From positions 32,001 to 96,000 of the IMG/VR virus record IMGVR_UViG_3300048851_000098: DNA of 64,000 nt; one strand, given 5' to 3'. Origin of the DNA: a virus. The translations under genes and the position numbers were made by a program. Below the pieces are notes generated by a model. It worked only from the letters and a program-made list of their open reading frames with translations, searched no databases and was not told the DNA's origin. Positions 3,755 to 49,270 of the stretch are shown here, piece by piece (positions within the stretch are counted from its first letter, which is position 1; each line of letters starts with the position of its first letter).

Positions 3755-3836
3755 GCCGGGAAGGCCCCAATGGTGGGGCACCTGACTGTAAATCAGGCGT
3801 CTCTGACAACGGCAGGTTCGATCCCTGCTCCCGGCA
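3755..3836 (+). tRNA. trnY: tRNA-Tyr(GTA)
   Basis: CCTGA-CTGTAAA-TCAGG. Confidence 0.92.
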
Positions 3837-8463: not shown

Positions 8464-8536
8464 GCCCGGATAACTCAGCGGTCAGAGTGCGGTCCTTACA
8501 AGACTGTGGTCCTTGGTTCGAATCCAAGTCTGGGCA
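8464..8536 (+). tRNA. trnV: tRNA-Val(TAC)
   Basis: CGGTC-CTTACAA-GACTG. Confidence 0.93.
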
Positions 8537-8539
8537 CTT

Positions 8540-9542: not shown

Positions 9543-9552
9543 CTGTAACAAT

Positions 9553-9646
9553 GGGCCGGTAGCCAAGGTTAGGACAGGCCACTCCCCGGCAGTGGTAGCT
9601 GTCGGAAGAGAAGGAGTGAAAGCGGGTTCGAATCCCGTCCGGTCCA
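9553..9646 (+). ncRNA. tRNA-like RNA with Ala identity (G3-U70, A73) and the anticodon loop replaced by a 27-nt hairpin module
   Basis: Acceptor GGGCCGG/CCGGTCC-A; D arm GCC/GGC; stem ACTCC/GGAGT enclosing CCGGCAG-TGGTAG-CTGTCGG-AAGAGAA; T arm GCGGG-TTCGAAT-CCCGT. Confidence 0.75.
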
Positions 9647-9647
9647 T

Positions 9648-9677
9648 TTGACACAGACTATGATTCTTGTGTATAGT
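9648..9677 (+). promoter_or_regulatory. sigma70/SigA promoter with extended -10
   Basis: TTGACA-N18-TATAGT preceded by TGTG. Confidence 0.75.
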
Positions 9678-9791
9678 AGCTCTACCTTCGCAAAAGGTGC
9701 GTTACGAGTAGGTTCTGGAAATTTCTGCAAACCATCAACTGGTTGAGAAACGCCTAAAGTTGCATCGAAGTCAGAATAGATGCAGCTCCGC

Positions 9792-9862
9792 TGCGGATTG
9801 GTGGATTGGTACCACGCGAGGCTCATAACCTTGAGGGACGGGTTCGATTCCCGTATCCGCTA
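9792..9862 (+). tRNA. trnM: tRNA-Met(CAT); unpaired 1:72 suggests initiator-like, Ile2 not excluded
   Basis: CGAGG-CTCATAA-CCTTG; U1-U72 mismatch. Confidence 0.85.
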
Positions 9863-9940
9863 TGTGCGATAGCTGGCCGCGCATCTCTGAGTGTGCCTTT
9901 GGCATTTATCAGACAAGGGTCTTCGACTCCCAGCTAACTA

Positions 9941-10012
9941 GGGCGATTGGTGTAATCGGGAACACACTAGCTTTGCAAGCTAGAATTGGGGGTTCGACTC
10001 CCCCATTGTCCA
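9941..10012 (+). tRNA. trnA: tRNA-Ala(TGC)
   Basis: CTAGC-TTTGCAA-GCTAG; G3-U70; A73. Confidence 0.92.
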
Positions 10013-10107
10013 TGCCGAGCCGGATGTGATGGATTATCTTGGTAAATGGTGCGACCCACCTACCGAGTTCGAGTCTCGGGTATCCACCGCAATTGATTTG
10101 CTCGGCA
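10013..10107 (+). ncRNA. Y RNA (distal copy with a T-arm only)
   Basis: TGCCGAGC/GCTCGGCA ends; CGAGCCGGA-N9-TTATCT...ATTTGCTCG motif as in the three Ro60-adjacent RNAs; CCGAG-TTCGAGT-CTCGG. Confidence 0.75.
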
Positions 10108-10133
10108 ATCTAAATCCACAAAGGAGGCGAATC

Positions 10134-10169
10134 ATGCTGAAGCGCCTGCTTGTCCTTAGGACAAGCTAG
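10134..10169 (+). promoter_or_regulatory. putative leader peptide MLKRLLVLRTS
   Basis: Strong RBS AAGGAGG 10121-10127; ORF contains hairpin GCTTGTCC/GGACAAGC. Confidence 0.45.
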
Positions 10170-10238
10170 CCTCAGTCGAAGGGACGGATGAACCGTCTCT
10201 AGTGCCGGCTGGGGCGCCCCGAAAGGGGGTGAAACAGC

Positions 10239-42832: not shown

Positions 42833-43392
42833 GGCTGATCACACGGATGATGACCGTGCTCCAAGAAATACTTATTGCTCTTCTTGAACTTCAATCTGCC
42901 GTCAACTCTGCGTGGCACCCAAAACCCCCACTTGCGACGATCAGGAAAGAAATACAGAAGTGTCCAACAGCCGCCGGGATCAACAGCAACAGTGTGTCTG
43001 TGCTCAGCTTTGCGGAATGCGAACTTTCCCGGTGTCATGTGCTGAAATCTCATCATATACCCGTGCGCACACTTGAGTCGAGCGCACACGCCTGACGCGC
43101 ACCACGGGCATCTTCTGTCGGTCAGCTCCCAATCGACGTAACCGCCCTTGAGCACGAGCGTGCAGAAATCTGCGGGGTGATCGTGCTGGTAGCGCTTATC
43201 GTCGCTCCGGTACCAGTGGTGGAGCCGCAATGAGCCGAGCCGGCCCATGTTGATGACCCACCGTCGCAGGTACGGGCATTCAGGTTCGCCGAGGTACTGC
43301 CCCCATGTCACGCCAAGCTTCAAGAAATTCCTTCCTTGAGCAGAGCTGTTTCCACAATGGATTTCACCTGAGAGTTCTTCAGATGATTCCAC
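42829..43392 (-). CDS. cupin-like phage protein
   Basis: YLRRW, LRLHH, HDHP, VLKGGY, HRHTV, WTL. Confidence 0.7.
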   Translation of the reverse strand: MESSEELSGEIHCGNSSAQGRNFLKLGVTWGQYLGEPECPYLRRWVINMGRLGSLRLHHWYRSDDKRYQHDHPADFCTLVLKGGYVDWELTDRRCPWCASGVCARLKCAHGYMMRFQHMTPGKFAFRKAEHRHTVAVDPGGCWTLLYFFPDRRKWGFWVPRRVDGRLKFKKSNKYFLEHGHHPCDQP

Positions 43393-43682
43393 TTCGCCTC
43401 GCGAACAGCAGTGCGGATAGCAGCTTCGAGTTCTTCTGCTGTTCTCGCCGCATCGTTCATGGTCTGTTCCGATTCTCAGGCAAGTTCTCAGGCAACAGAT
43501 CGCTGGCAGGCCGCAGGCCGGCGTCTACCTGTCTCTGCACGCGGATCTGCCGACATGGAACACACTCAAACGCATTCACTATTCCGCCATCAACGATGAA
43601 TGTGATGTAACGATCCGTGGGTTCACCACAGTTGTAACATCTCATTGCCTCGATGGCTTTGCGGATTTGTTCTCTCAGGTCG

Positions 43683-44252
43683 TCATCCATCAGATTCCAG
43701 CTCTGCCCACGACTTCTGAAGATACTTATACCAACGGCTATTAACTCTGCCTTCTGATTTCACATCCCATTCAGACAGCGTGGCCTTGTCGCCGTCTCGA
43801 ATGATCACGGCTGAGGCCAGGGATTCGTCTTCCACGCATGCGAACCAAACCAGTACGTTTTCCTCGACACCATCCATGTAGGAAATGTCGCCGTAGTATT
43901 CAACAGGATTGCCAGCAGCCTTGCGTCTTTGTATGTAATCGAAGGCGGGTGTGTCTCCTTTGATATTCCATGTCTCAGTCAGAATAGCGAAGTATCTGCC
44001 GCCTGCTGTTGCCATAGGCGCGAGCACTTCTGAGCCAAGTCGCTCTTTCATCGTAGGATTTGCAAACAATTCCGTCGGCATATTTACGATAATTGCAACG
44101 GGATCGATCGTTCGATGCGTGATCAGAATCGGAAGCATTTGTCCGGCACGTCTGAATACTTCATCTGCGGCATGCATTACAAATTCAGTGAACTCCTCAA
44201 AGGAGCCTCTGAATGGCAGTGAAAGCGAATGAATATCTTCTTCAGTGATCAT
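43683..44252 (-). CDS. hypothetical protein
   Basis: Long ORF in the co-oriented arm. Confidence 0.6.
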   Translation of the reverse strand: MITEEDIHSLSLPFRGSFEEFTEFVMHAADEVFRRAGQMLPILITHRTIDPVAIIVNMPTELFANPTMKERLGSEVLAPMATAGGRYFAILTETWNIKGDTPAFDYIQRRKAAGNPVEYYGDISYMDGVEENVLVWFACVEDESLASAVIIRDGDKATLSEWDVKSEGRVNSRWYKYLQKSWAELESDG

Positions 44253-44419
44253 TGATTTCCCGCGCTTTCCTAATTCGCTTTGCTTCCCATTCATATGTCG
44301 TGCGAATACGAATAGGCGCTGTCAGATCCCACCAGCGGAGTTGCCAGCGATGATAGTGCCACCATGGCTTAGCTTCCATTTTGTCAAGGATCTGCGCTGC
44401 TTCCATAGGATTTGTTCGT

Positions 44420-44770
44420 CTAATGTTCATCGCTGGATTCAAGTTCCTTGATGCGTCTGTCTCGAATTGCGATTCTGATCTCTCTTTTTGTTGCTGGCGT
44501 AAAGTGCATGAATGTTCTGATGAACGTCCATCTCATCGTCTGCGGTCGCTTGCTCTCGATTGTATTGCCGGCGACGACCAGCCACGCCAGCGGCCACATG
44601 AGTGCACAAATACCACCGATGAGCAGTGCGCTACCGGCCCCCGGCTGGCTTCTGTAGTCGCTCCACCCCTCTGACCATCTCCGCAGACGTGGTGCGTACA
44701 GCATGCCCGCGAAGATCCGCATGCTGATAATCGCAATGACCAAGTACACACTGGTCACATAGATGTTCAT
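44420..44770 (-). CDS. membrane protein
   Basis: Two TM segments. Confidence 0.55.
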   Translation of the reverse strand: MNIYVTSVYLVIAIISMRIFAGMLYAPRLRRWSEGWSDYRSQPGAGSALLIGGICALMWPLAWLVVAGNTIESKRPQTMRWTFIRTFMHFTPATKREIRIAIRDRRIKELESSDEH

Positions 44771-45102
44771 ACTTGACTTCCGCCTCCCAGCAAGTCCAGT
44801 CCGATACAAATCGCCAGAGCGATTGCCCAATCATTCCAATCGTTGAAACTGACGTGCGGTGTATCTGAAATCAACCACACTACAAACCAAATGAACGTCA
44901 TCGAATCACCAGTTTCAACAATCCACCGCAACGTCGTCCATGTTCTTTGACGTGAACGCCTTGACGTTGAATTTCACCAATTGCACTGCAACAGGCTTTG
45001 ATAGGCAAAACAGTGCCACCACGCGGACAAAGAAAGTTCCTCATCCACGAGTAGTTTCCGTTGTATCTACCGCCACAGCGCTGGCACTGGAATATGTATG
45101 AC

Positions 45103-45315
45103 TTAGCCATCGTCGCTCGCAAGTCGCGACAGAAACGTTCCGATAGCGTCGTTGATGTCATCCCGGAATCTGACTATACGTCGAGAATCAGCCAGTACAT
45201 CAGGAGTAACATCAATATTCAGCTTGTCAGCTTCGGACACCAGTTGGCGAAGCTCTTCGACCTGCTCATGAGAGAGCGAGAGCGCCAATTCCTTGATTTG
45301 CTCATCACTCATCAT
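45103..45315 (-). CDS. small coiled-coil protein
   Basis: Co-oriented; coupled downstream. Confidence 0.5.
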   Translation of the reverse strand: MMSDEQIKELALSLSHEQVEELRQLVSEADKLNIDVTPDVLADSRRIVRFRDDINDAIGTFLSRLASDDG

Positions 45316-45479
45316 CAGGGTCAAAAATTTACAGAATATTCCTTGAAATCATCCTATAAAGATAGGCAAAACATCCAGCAAGAAGACGCTGCCGGGGTGG
45401 TCGCGATCTGCGCGGCCCCAGGGGGTTTAGGGCACTCGTTAGGGCAGACCGATCAACCAGGGGGCACCCCCGACAGCAG

Positions 45480-45673
45480 CACGCAGGGTGGGATTTGAAC
45501 CACACGACCTCCGGGTTGTATCGAGTCTCCGAGCGACTACTTGCGCGCCGGCCGGAATACGCAAGTGCTTATCATCGGCTGTCCGGCGGTCGATGCCTCG
45601 ACCCTCCATGTTTACCGATTTCCACCTGCTCTTTGACTCTTCCCGGTGCTCTACCAGACTGAGCTACCCGCGT
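45480..45673 (-). ncRNA. tRNA-like RNA with a 126-nt structured insert replacing the anticodon loop
   Basis: Acceptor ACGCGGG/CCTGCGT; D arm GCTC-AGTCTGGTA-GAGC; stem CCGGG/CCCGG around 45516-45641; AGGTC variable region; T-loop GTTCAAATC. Confidence 0.75.
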
Positions 45674-45811
45674 ATGTGATGGGTTGCGATTCCAGACCTT
45701 ACGCAACCCGAATCGGATTCCCTCCCATACTTCACAGCGAATCCGATTGAATGAAGTAGTCTTCAGCCGCCCGTTACGACGTGGCTCATCTGGACTTCAC
45801 TCATGCGATGC

Positions 45812-45840
45812 ACTCTACAGTAGCTTGTGGGCTTTGTCAA
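45812..45840 (-). promoter_or_regulatory. sigma70/SigA promoter driving the tRNA-like RNA
   Basis: TTGACA-N17-TAGAGT on the minus strand. Confidence 0.75.
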
Positions 45841-45842
45841 CC

Positions 45843-46277
45843 CTAGGCGGCGACAAGCTCGCGCCCGCGCAAGTCCTCCACGGCACGGTCAATGACCTCC
45901 GCGCATGCCTCTGCACCATTGCGCACCATGTAGTCCGTGAAGGGGTCTGCTCTCATATCGCTTTCGAAAAACGTCGTCCCGGAATCTGCCTCTTCCGGGA
46001 TGAACGGCATGACAGCCAATTGCGCTCTATCGGCGAGTGGACTGTCATCGAACAGCGATGGAACGACTGGAATAACGCCGTAGCCATGCTCGCCCAAATC
46101 GTGTGCTGCCATCCGAATGCAGCCGACAAAGCAACCGCGCTCTGCTGTGCCAGTCCACGCCCCTTGAGCCCCGTCCGCAGTTTCGTACATAGAGTGAAGC
46201 GGGTCCTTCACCACTCTGTCAGGATCACGCAGCATTCTGGCGGCTGCTTCGAGCACGTCGATTTCAGAAACGCTCAT
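45843..46277 (-). CDS. hypothetical protein (DUF6197-like pattern)
   Basis: VLEAAARML...GCFVGCI...AEVIDRA; RBS AGAAAGGGACAG. Confidence 0.6.
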   Translation of the reverse strand: MSVSEIDVLEAAARMLRDPDRVVKDPLHSMYETADGAQGAWTGTAERGCFVGCIRMAAHDLGEHGYGVIPVVPSLFDDSPLADRAQLAVMPFIPEEADSGTTFFESDMRADPFTDYMVRNGAEACAEVIDRAVEDLRGRELVAA

Positions 46278-46543
46278 CTTCTGTCCCTTTCTGCTTCAAG
46301 ATCCGATACGAGTACATTGATCGGATTTTTGAAATCTGCGGCCAGTTCATCACAGATGATTTCTGCTTCGCCGTACTCATCATTGATTTCATGAATAGTG
46401 CATCTGAGACGGCTTACATTTTCTGATTTGAGTGAGCAGATTTTTCTTAGGAGAAGCGCGTTTGGATACCAACCAGAATGCTCTCGAATAACTTCTTCGA
46501 GTTCATCTGACAGGATCAGATACGCTGTGTCACCGGTTTGCAT
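46274..46543 (-). CDS. hypothetical protein
   Basis: TAATG- and ATGA-coupled on both sides. Confidence 0.55.
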   Translation of the reverse strand: MQTGDTAYLILSDELEEVIREHSGWYPNALLLRKICSLKSENVSRLRCTIHEINDEYGEAEIICDELAADFKNPINVLVSDLEAERDRR

Positions 46544-47001
46544 TAGCCGATGATTCCGAGCACGGCACTGACCTTCGCCAGTTCCTTCTGCCACTCGGCC
46601 TTTTCTCTTTCTGCTTGCTCGATTACTCTGTCCTGCCAAGCAATTCTCTCGCGAAGGAAATCGCAATGCTCGGTAGCGCTTTTGTACAACGCCGGAATCA
46701 GGTTACCCTCGTGAGTTGATTCTTTGAGAGGCAGACGTGATCTGTCGTCGTACTTCGTTTGTGTTGAGCTAACTGTGCTTCGAGGATCTACAGGCAGCTC
46801 AAGCCCCAGGCGTCTTGCGCCACGGCGAATTTTCTTCGCACTGAAGCCTGTTGCATCTTCGATCTGCGTCCACGTCAGCCCATCGTGACGCATCTCAACT
46901 GCCCATCTAATTCTGAAGTCGTCGCCTTGGTTTGGCTCCTCCTCCACCGCCACTGACTCGCGTGCCTCTTCGCCAGTGACCCCTTCCTCGGTTACCACCA
47001 C
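46543..47001 (-). CDS. HTH plus coiled-coil protein
   Basis: GLTWTQIEDATGFSAKKIRR. Confidence 0.65.
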   Translation of the reverse strand: MVVTEEGVTGEEARESVAVEEEPNQGDDFRIRWAVEMRHDGLTWTQIEDATGFSAKKIRRGARRLGLELPVDPRSTVSSTQTKYDDRSRLPLKESTHEGNLIPALYKSATEHCDFLRERIAWQDRVIEQAEREKAEWQKELAKVSAVLGIIG

Positions 47002-47021
47002 GACTCCTTTCCTCGTGTTCC

Positions 47022-48704
47022 TTAGATGCTCTCCTGAATGAACTGCGCCATGATCTGTGGTGCGCCAGAGTCGAACCCGACGACATCCAACATGCCTGGA
47101 TCTCTTGGGTTAGCGATGCTGTATTCGGTAGCTGTGTAGGCAGCAGCAATCAGCTTTGCTCTGATACCGCTTTCCTTGCGATAGAACTCCAAAGCTTGCG
47201 ATGCGTGAATCCCACCATTCCACGACTCGTTATCGGTGTGGATCTCGAAAACGTCGTATTCCTTGCCGTTCTCACGGGCGTACATGATTGGCAGTGCGCA
47301 ATCTGTAGCACCCATAAACGGAGACATCGCTCGCATCGCGCGATCAACATCATCGAGACGCTGACGGGGGCTGAGTGCCATCGGTGTCAAGCCAGGGTAG
47401 ATCTCTCTACCGGAGTTCCGACTGCGGTAATAACTGTCCCCTCCGCTGGTAAACGCAACCACGTCGTAGGGATCGCCCGTCTTCATGCTGGCGAGCGACA
47501 TCGCACCGGCCGCCTCTGCGGCCACGAACCCTTCGATGCCGGCGACGTACCTCGGGTACGCGCCCCACATCGAACCGGAGATATCGAGCGCAATCAGACG
47601 ACGTGCGCCAGTCGGCTCCAAATTGTCGAACGCGAGATAGAACGCCTCATCGAGGGCGTCGAGAATCTGAGGCACAGGTGTCCACGTCTGCCCGCGCCGG
47701 CCCACCCCCGCCGCATAGGTCTTTGAGGCCAGCAGCACGTTGGCAGGGTGGATTCGCGCAGCGCTGATTACCTCCGCGTCAGTGAGCGTTCTGCGGATGA
47801 TGTCCGTCTCTCTGCTTGTGCCAGTGATCACACCATCGCGTGTCATGTTGGCGAGATTGCGAATCATCGCCGTCATGGGCATTTGTGCATTCAGAAGTGC
47901 AGACCAGACCTCGGGCTGATTTCTGTGCTCAGTCAGAATCGCCTCGCGTGGCAGACGGAATCTTTCGATCAGTCTGGCAGTAGCTCTCGGCGTTCTCGCT
48001 CTGAGAGCCTTGCCGGCAGCCTGCACGATCTCCGGGAGATCTCTTTTCTTTCCCTTGTATCTGTTGGTCGCCCACTGGAAGAGCATCTTCATCTCTTCCA
48101 TATCTTCGTGAACAACTCTCTCGCGATCCTCTGGATTTGGATGTGCGAGACGCAACAGATCCTCGTGCGACCATCCGTCGCGCTGTGGATACTTCACGAG
48201 CTGGTAGGCGAGCTTCGGAATTGGCTTCTTCAGATACCAATTCGCCACGGCGTTTCTCATACCACGGCCCCAGCCGGCGAACTGCTCGCGGAACGTAACG
48301 AATTGGAACAAATGTGTGCCGATACGGCAGACATTGTTCACGTTCTCGAATGCGTACTGGCGTGTTGCGTCATCACCAAGCGCAGAGGCCATGGCGAGAG
48401 CGAACACGGCTTGATCATTCTTCGGTGCGCGAGCGTCCATCGAGATTTCAACGATGGTGTCCACGGTTCTGATTCCGTCAAGTTTGCAACACTCGATTAC
48501 GCACTCGGCGTTTTCACGAGTCAGCTTGCGCTCACCCGTGTAGTAGGTCCCGCCCTCGGAACCGAGAATGAGGAATCGCCGCAGACGAGCAAAGGGATCG
48601 ATCTCATAGACGAAACCACCAGCGTTGTTCTCGACCTGATCTTGACCAGGGATCGGTTCGCTCTGTGGTGTTTCTTTTGCTCCGTAATTTCTCAGATACG
48701 ACAT
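47022..48704 (-). CDS. rsr: Ro60/Rsr TROVE-domain RNA-binding protein with a vWA domain
   Basis: NNAGGFVY, RLRRFLILGSEGGTYY, VCRIGTHLF, YQLVKY.QRDGWSH.DLLRLAHP, MPMTAMIRNL, MIDAS ALDISGSM, TDC, TDNE, MLDVVGFD. Confidence 0.97.
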   Translation of the reverse strand: MSYLRNYGAKETPQSEPIPGQDQVENNAGGFVYEIDPFARLRRFLILGSEGGTYYTGERKLTRENAECVIECCKLDGIRTVDTIVEISMDARAPKNDQAVFALAMASALGDDATRQYAFENVNNVCRIGTHLFQFVTFREQFAGWGRGMRNAVANWYLKKPIPKLAYQLVKYPQRDGWSHEDLLRLAHPNPEDRERVVHEDMEEMKMLFQWATNRYKGKKRDLPEIVQAAGKALRARTPRATARLIERFRLPREAILTEHRNQPEVWSALLNAQMPMTAMIRNLANMTRDGVITGTSRETDIIRRTLTDAEVISAARIHPANVLLASKTYAAGVGRRGQTWTPVPQILDALDEAFYLAFDNLEPTGARRLIALDISGSMWGAYPRYVAGIEGFVAAEAAGAMSLASMKTGDPYDVVAFTSGGDSYYRSRNSGREIYPGLTPMALSPRQRLDDVDRAMRAMSPFMGATDCALPIMYARENGKEYDVFEIHTDNESWNGGIHASQALEFYRKESGIRAKLIAAAYTATEYSIANPRDPGMLDVVGFDSGAPQIMAQFIQESI

Positions 48705-48888: not shown

Positions 48889-49025
48889 AGGCTACGAGCA
48901 AATTGTTTGGATTCGATATAGGCGCTCTAACCAGGCTGAGCTACACGCCTTTTGAGCGTGACGGGATTCGAACCCGCGACCTCCCTCTTATGCGGAGATA
49001 ATCGATTCCATCCGGCTCGTAGCCT
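48889..49025 (-). ncRNA. YrlA-type Y RNA with a permuted tRNA-like domain
   Basis: AGGCTACGAGC/GCTCGTAGCCT ends; T arm (GGGTTCGAATCCC), closed acceptor (CACGC/GCGTG), then D arm (TAGCTCAGCCTGGTTAGAGC); adjacent to Ro60. Confidence 0.9.
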
Positions 49026-49033
49026 TCAAGAGA

Positions 49034-49106
49034 TCTCGCGAACAAATAGTTGGTGATGGGTATTGTCTGTTCGATAGAGATAACCCAAAACCTCCGGCTC
49101 GCGAGA
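49034..49106 (-). ncRNA. minimal 73-nt Y RNA without a tRNA module
   Basis: TCTCGCGAGC/GTTCGCGAGA ends; CGAGCCGGA-N9-TTATCT...ATTTGTTCG. Confidence 0.8.
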
Positions 49107-49128
49107 GCAGTTATTCAGTTGTAAGGGG

Positions 49129-49270
49129 CTGGTCGAACAAATTAGTTGAAAAGCGAGATTTTTTACCACTGCTCTACCAATTGAGCTACCGACGCTCTTC
49201 GAGCCTCGGGCAGGAATCGAACCTGCAACCTTTGGTCCCTGAGATAACGCTTATCGTCCGGCTCGACCAG
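49129..49270 (-). ncRNA. second YrlA-type Y RNA
   Basis: CTGGTCGAGC/GTTCGACCAG ends; T arm GCAGG-TTCGATT-CCTGC, closed acceptor, D arm TAGCTCAATTGGTAGAGC. Confidence 0.9.

Follow-up and report, generated by a model that had tools for sequence, protein, structure and literature searches.

In YrlA, a tRNA-like Y RNA that occurs in bacteria and actinophages, the helix that binds Ro60 is formed by the two ends of the RNA (Chen et al. 2014, PMC4201824). The locus described here is in a soil phage, and it resembles YrlA (Rfam family RF02553) in several ways: its D and T arms and its acceptor stem are those of a tRNA-like RNA, it cannot decode as an ordinary tRNA does, and it is encoded near a Ro60 gene, in a phage that has YrlA-type RNAs as well. 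However, the two differ in their topology, because the acceptor of YrlA is closed by a loop, whereas the acceptor ends of our element are free. In addition, the GNCGAA/GUUAUC docking helix of YrlA is undetectable in the element.

The second described system consists of the rnaC and rnaD genes of phage T4 (species 1 and 2; AF158101 70908-71171). Like the element, these are phage-encoded RNAs with tRNA-like parts; the T4 RNAs are stable. The T4 RNAs have no sequence similarity to the element, and rnaC does not have a clear D arm or anticodon stem, both of which the element has. The T4 genes also lie inside a tRNA cluster and are transcribed alongside the tRNA genes, whereas the element is 35 kb away from the tRNA array of its phage. 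The nearest published RNAs are YrlA and, more loosely, T4 rnaC and rnaD.

Two other systems share the site of the insertion. Some bacterial tRNA genes, including those for tRNA-Leu(UAA) and tRNA-fMet, have group I introns that interrupt the anticodon loop, as it is interrupted in the element; however, the element has neither a group I core nor the U(-1)/G(omega) pair, its insert is too short, and U33 cannot be restored. In the engineered tRNA scaffolds of Ponchon and Dardel, a foreign structured RNA reportedly replaces the anticodon loop and the tRNA body provides processing and stability. The anticodon stem is intact both in those constructs and in the element, but the element is a natural gene.

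The stretch of DNA that was analysed (64,000 nt, referred to as the window) belongs to a 124-kb IMG/VR viral contig that is about 85% complete. The gene content of the phage includes a DnaE-type polymerase, a helicase, a primase and a portal protein, and ARAGORN and Rfam place about 27 tRNA genes in an array at 2.6-10.2 kb of the window. Three details of this array were noticed. The tRNA-Arg(CCG) gene at 9552-9647 measures 96 nt and, unusually for Arg, has a long extra arm. A permuted 'tmRNA*' call by ARAGORN at 9553-10204 extends across several of the tRNA genes and appears to be a false positive. Finally, Rfam finds a tRNA at 3755-3836 (47.7 bits) that ARAGORN missed, and its loop, CUGUAAA, suggests that it is a tRNA-Tyr(GUA).

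The Ro60 system of the phage consists of one protein gene and a short array of Y RNAs:

47022..48704, minus strand: the phage Ro60 gene, with TROVE and Ro60 vWA domains (E 9e-48 and 7e-45)
48889..49270, minus strand: three canonical-topology Y RNAs directly upstream of Ro60, identified by sequence and by matches at their junctions to R2, a covariance model described below

The closest Ro60 proteins are just 54-57% identical to that of the phage and are encoded on contigs of 60-125 kb. The three upstream Y RNAs have in common a private 5' consensus, GAGCCGGA-N8-GUUAUC, as well as a 3' AAYNAUUUGYUCG. Two of the three have D and T arms and an acceptor closed by a loop, and all three score under the Rfam gathering threshold for YrlA. 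The acceptor of the RNA that we call Y1 is a loop-closed helix of 7 bp, as in the Mycolicibacterium smegmatis YrlA that is cleaved by RNase P.

The element lies 1349 nt downstream of the Ro60 stop codon at 47022, in agreement with the 1.3 kb given by the first-pass annotation, and three small ORFs lie between the two. Read on the minus strand from 45673 to 45480, it is a full tRNA cloverleaf with a 126-nt insert inside the anticodon loop. Its parts, together with those of the putative transcription unit around it, are as follows, in 5' to 3' order:

45812..45840, minus strand: sigma-70-type promoter-like site, TTGACA-N17-TAGAGT, matching at 10 of 12 positions, with a predicted start near 45805
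45674..45805, minus strand: 5' leader, about 130 nt, for which the fold of the whole unit predicts three hairpins
45667..45673, minus strand: 5' strand of the acceptor stem, ACGCGGG (sequence and alignment to R1, the model introduced below)
45648..45664, minus strand: D arm, GCUC-AGUCUGGUA-GAGC (sequence and R1 alignment)
45642..45646, minus strand: 5' strand of the anticodon stem, CCGGG, which pairs with CCCGG
45516..45641, minus strand: the 126-nt insert, with a closing helix, a long arm and a short arm (fold)
45511..45515, minus strand: 3' strand of the anticodon stem, CCCGG, which pairs with CCGGG
45506..45510, minus strand: variable region, AGGUC (sequence and R1 alignment)
45488..45505, minus strand: T arm, GUG(u)GG-UUCAAAU-CCCAC (R1 alignment)
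45480..45487, minus strand: 3' strand of the acceptor stem, CCUGCGU (45481-45487), followed by the discriminator G (45480) (sequence)
45375..45479, minus strand: 3' trailer, which contains a long hairpin when the whole unit is folded

The first-pass annotation had described the tRNA body as intact, and all of the parts that it named are indeed present. The acceptor ACGCGGG/CCUGCGU has 7 bp, one of which is G.U, and the element encodes no CCA at its 3' end. U8 and A9 are present, and the D-arm region carries A14, G15, G18, G19 and A21. The C48 of the variable region can form the Levitt pair with G15; with this pair, G18, G19, A14 and A21 all in place, the L-shape can form. One blemish was found in the T stem, which consists of 5 bp plus one bulged U; the T loop, UUCAAAU, is intact.

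ARAGORN and Rfam, two of the checks named by the first-pass annotation, do not call the element. ARAGORN with default settings makes no call on it, Rfam over the whole window at the gathering threshold finds nothing there, and neither does Rfam at E<=10 over 43000-48500. The 126-nt insert is the reason why the element is missed. A covariance model that can accommodate large inserts, built from the tRNA-topology Y RNAs described below and named R1, aligns the element end to end (model positions 1-139) with 30.2 bits and an E value of 7.7e-6 over 625 kb. This score is inside the range of 24-47 bits that genuine tRNAs obtain with R1. T4 rnaC, in comparison, matches R1 with its acceptor and T arm only, at 16.6 bits. 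We also deleted the insert in silico at each of the 8 possible loop positions, and ARAGORN calls a 76-nt tRNA in all eight reconstructions. The tRNA body is no recent copy of any of the 27 tRNAs of the phage.

The insert itself, which occupies the place of the 5' portion of the loop, folds well. Its predicted structure has a GAGUC/GACUC closing helix, a long irregular arm and a short G+C-rich arm (45556-45528); the long arm holds the helices GCAGGUG/CACUUGC and AUCGGU/GCCGAU and ends in the tip GGUCGA-GGCA-UCGACC. Seven bases, GAUACAA, are left unpaired just before the anticodon stem. The folding energy is -49 kcal/mol compared with -35.7 +/- 3.7 for shuffled sequences (z -3.6), and none of 200 shuffles was as stable. 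The closing helix and the GGUCGA-GGCA-UCGACC hairpin had been pointed out earlier and both appear in this fold. The proposed ACUUGCG/CGCAAGU hairpin fared less well: its two strands are present, but it and GCAGGUG/CACUUGC are mutually exclusive, and the minimum-free-energy fold takes the latter. No Rfam family matches the insert at E<=10, and the insert is repeated nowhere else in the genome. For the element as a whole the folding z-score is modest, at -2.3.

The flanks have the appearance of a separate gene. The promoter-like site proposed by the first-pass annotation is where it was said to be, and a terminator-like hairpin followed by a U tract (45395..45375) lies at the end of the trailer. 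Sites of the type TTGACA-N16-18-TANNNT occur 6 times in the window, where 0.93 would be expected. No ORF of at least 70 amino acids occurs on either strand of the 518-nt gap that holds the unit (45325-45842). When the 437-nt unit is folded as a whole, the predicted structure retains the cloverleaf, between the three leader hairpins and the long trailer hairpin. The leader opens with an AUG at the predicted start, followed by a 13-codon frame (MSEVQMSHVVTGG, then a stop), which may be a leaderless mini-ORF or a chance occurrence. Another terminator-like hairpin with a U tract lies further upstream on the minus strand (45977-46000), within the predicted ORF 45843-46277; because of this hairpin, the call or the extent of that ORF may be wrong.

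Taken together, these results make us favor, with a probability of roughly 0.45, the reading that the locus is a gene transcribed on its own, whose product is a non-decoding RNA with a tRNA scaffold and an orphan cargo domain. The full-length R1 match, the eight ARAGORN calls and the intact tertiary nucleotides speak for the body; the z-score of the insert and the persistence of the cloverleaf in the larger fold speak for the structure; and the promoter-like and terminator-like flanks in an ORF-free gap speak for a gene-like unit. A body that was not recently copied from the tRNAs of the phage points the same way, as does the precedent, described next, of cargo-bearing tRNA bodies that are common beside Ro60 genes. 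Against these points stand the bulged U of the T stem, which is a possible sign of decay, the modest z-score of the whole element, and the fact that the structure comes from a singleton and has no backing from conservation or covariation.

The first-pass annotation had proposed that the element is a topological mirror of YrlA, with free acceptor ends and with structured cargo on the anticodon stem. The physical description, of a tRNA-shaped body whose acceptor ends are free and whose cargo is structured, agrees with the R1 alignment, the ARAGORN calls and the fold of the insert. The relationship to YrlA was examined in 165 Ro60 gene neighbourhoods from IMG/VR and the JGI metagenomes (1.5 Mb in total). 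In some of these, the Rfam tRNA model matches odd "tRNAs" of 95-128 nt just upstream of Ro60, and a cloverleaf scanner recovers many more such RNAs than the Rfam tRNA model does. Twelve of them align well (alignment A3), and this alignment has compensatory changes in all seven acceptor pairs as well as in the D and T stems. R1 was built from these twelve, and a search with it yields about 55 members, with scores of 55-120 bits, in contigs of phages and metagenomes, including the following:

L002, 5479-5737
L011, 2130-2252
L019, 207-673
L022, 529-1533
L064, 1202-1639
L083, 3719-4236
L103, 1663-2017
L107, 5442-5847

About 40 more were found in the same search. In 49 of the 55 members a perfect 7-bp acceptor is formed by the RNA's own two ends, and so the members are not artefacts of tandem YrlA genes. 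With about 55 such RNAs beside Ro60 genes, the topological mirror of YrlA does exist and is widespread. We found no description of tRNA-topology Y RNAs in the literature that was searched.

The cargo of this family is a loop-closed Ro60-docking module, which consists of the 3' strand of the upper helix, CAAnnCUUGCC, a cap, GGGCCGA, N8 and GGUUAUC; both of its helices vary in a paired manner. Two subtypes occur. In the first, the docking module takes the place of the anticodon loop. In the second, it is located between the D arm and an intact hairpin with a 7-nt anticodon-like loop, for example CUGUUAA, CUGAUAA, CUUUUAA, CUCAUAA or CUUCCAA. These loops can be read as the anticodons Asn GUU, Ile GAU, Lys UUU, Met CAU, Gly UCC and others, and the RNAs of the second subtype may be tRNAs that are still able to present an anticodon.

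Three tRNA or tRNA-like genes were also noticed just upstream of Ro60 in related Ro60 phages (L004 4481-4556 and 4676-4773; L005 5135-5230). One is a tRNA with a CUA anticodon (amber suppressor-type), one is called as a tRNA with a 4-base anticodon (UAAA), and the third is a 96-nt tRNA-like gene with the loop CCCUAAA and a long extra arm.

The element shares with the tRNA-topology Y RNAs a full cloverleaf, an acceptor made from its own ends, cargo on the anticodon arm and a Ro60 neighbourhood. One alternative is that it is a Ro60 partner, namely a circularly permuted Y RNA of the YrlA type whose docking helix has diverged. We consider this doubtful, although it survives best among the alternatives. 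The topology is real and common in relatives, and Y RNAs are located downstream of Ro60 in other loci as well, such as L108, L123 and L155. However, the members of the family score 55-120 bits with R1 and have the module, whereas the 30 bits of the element come from the tRNA body alone, and R1 skips the insert. The insert is also longer (126 nt versus 43-122 nt) and branched, and the element, with its own promoter-like site, is 1.35 kb downstream of Ro60 and not in the array directly upstream of the gene; some members of the family are downstream of Ro60 as well.

Several direct searches for the docking module bear on this alternative. In an unfiltered search of the whole window, the R2 model, which was built from the docking modules of 35 members, matches solely at the junctions of the canonical Y array (19-20 bits); on the sense strand of the element, it scores no higher than -0.4 bits. 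Profile HMMs of both module strands (nhmmer) have no match on the element, and RF02553 has none at E<=10 in 43000-48500. Pairwise alignments of the insert, judged against shuffles, give no objective support for a Y module. When the phage's own Y 5' strands were slid along the window, the insert was not among the top places, and GUUAUC and CUUGCC are missing from the insert at the expected register.

Two short matches would favor a connection, but we regard them as motif coincidences. The insert carries GCCGGAC and GAUAAGC, 7 nt apart and beside 6-bp helices, and both are also present in the 5' strand of Y1; the chance expectations per 126 nt are 0.013 and 0.007, respectively, for matches that were picked post hoc. 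Three insert registers that had been selected by hand (GCCGGACAG-N5-GAUAAGC, CACUUGC..GGCCGGCGC and GGGUCGAGG) were dropped as over-fitting in a G+C-rich sequence.

The docking module defines the tRNA-topology Y RNA family, and these searches did not find it in the element. Thus, the mirror of YrlA that was proposed for this locus exists elsewhere, beside the Ro60 genes of other phages and metagenomes, but the element itself is probably not one of these RNAs. The link between the element and Ro60 is one of proximity: within a genome of 124 kb, the Ro60 gene is 1.35 kb away and the Y RNA array 3.2 kb away.

The search for relatives of the element had one outcome throughout. No homolog was found by blastn in its 'distant' setting against 50,697 GenBank phages, or by blastn and nhmmer against the 165 Ro60 loci. 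A single-sequence covariance model of the insert, R3, has as its top match in the 1.5 Mb of Ro60 loci a site within a Ro60 coding region, with 19 bits and an E value of 0.2. Exact and gapped pattern scans of IMG/VR and one pattern scan of the genome collection gave no relative either. Searches that started from the surroundings had the same result: the flanking-ORF search in IMG/VR was empty, and so was a tblastn search of all Ro60 loci with 16 neighbouring ORFs. The sole relative of the DNA polymerase (58% identity) is on an 18-kb contig that has no tRNA-like match. Hence the element is a singleton among the sequences searched, and its structure rests on one sequence.

Finding no homolog would also be expected of a dying tRNA gene, one that was disrupted by inserted DNA and is no longer functional. 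The bulged U, the lack of U33 and the location of the element in an accessory arm rich in orphan ORFs fit such a history. We nevertheless think it unlikely, because all of the stems and all of the nucleotides for tertiary interactions are intact, the insert is self-closed, single-copy in the genome and folds much better than its shuffles, and the promoter-like and terminator-like sites have been kept.

It is more improbable still that the element is an intron-bearing tRNA gene from which splicing would produce a decoding tRNA, for example one with the loop AAUACAA and the anticodon UAC. The 3' end of the insert, UACAA, does abut the stem as the 3' half of a tRNA-Val(UAC) loop would, and ARAGORN accepts all of the spliced forms. 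However, every product has A33 instead of U33, as expected from the earlier remark that simple removal of an intron would not rebuild U33 and an anticodon. The first-pass annotation considered the insert short for a group I intron; neither group I nor group II introns match it at E<=10, and it has no bulge-helix-bulge motif. The known size range of group I introns lies above 126 nt, and a discriminator G is unfit for Val identity; both count against an intron. The phage already has a tRNA-Val(UAC) gene at 8464-8537. Group I introns in tRNA anticodon loops have U at position -1 and G at omega (doi 10.1101/2020.01.27.920355). This pair occurs at none of the eight loop positions of the element; a U(-1) is present solely at position 6, and omega there is A. 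ARAGORN with introns allowed produced a forced tRNA-Thr(AGU) with a 101-nt intron, which was disregarded as implausible.

The suggestion that the element is a miniature tmRNA-like RNA, with a tRNA-like domain and a short tag frame that ends in the tandem stops UGA UAA, can be set aside as extremely improbable: the tandem stops are present as reported, but the frame before them, ..GKHGGSRHRPPDSR (..HRPPDSR), does not resemble a degradation tag, charging with alanine would need G.U at pair 3:70, where the element has G-C, the full D arm and anticodon stem are unlike tmRNA, ARAGORN in tmRNA mode reports 0 genes and Rfam has no tmRNA-clan match.

If the preferred reading of a non-decoding RNA with a tRNA scaffold is right, the tRNA body would be a substrate for the tRNA-processing machinery of the host. 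Were it processed like a tRNA, RNase P would cut at the 5' end and remove the leader of about 130 nt, and 3' trimming and addition of CCA would follow. The product would be a stable RNA of about 195 nt, in which the inserted branched domain would be the working part, probably as a handle for some protein or RNA. Pfam and PHROGs searches with the neighbouring ORFs gave no useful partner candidate. The genomic context offers solely the phage Ro60 system, 1.3-3.6 kb away, as a candidate partner.

A more specific proposal can be derived from this context. The element could be a second and structurally new kind of RNA of the phage Ro60 system, one that has a tRNA body, is cut by RNase P and is tailed with CCA, and whose branched 126-nt domain docks Ro60, or a different protein of the phage, by means of a surface that does not resemble the GNCGAA/GUUAUC helix. 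We regard this as improbable, less so than splicing and more so than a decayed gene, but if it were true, the phage could tether host enzymes that recognise tRNAs, or could decoy them, including anticodon nucleases.

Phages are turning out to encode many RNAs in which a tRNA body is the chassis for other domains, and the Ro60/Y RNA system is the best-understood case. As a singleton without evidence of conservation, the element has at present the weight of a lead. It would be a chassis whose cargo differs from the known Ro60 handle, and the phage encodes Ro60 and ordinary Y RNAs besides. If the RNA is expressed and stable, it would allow a direct test of the role of the tRNA body, that is, whether such a body serves processing and stability only or recruits tRNA-binding enzymes to a new partner.
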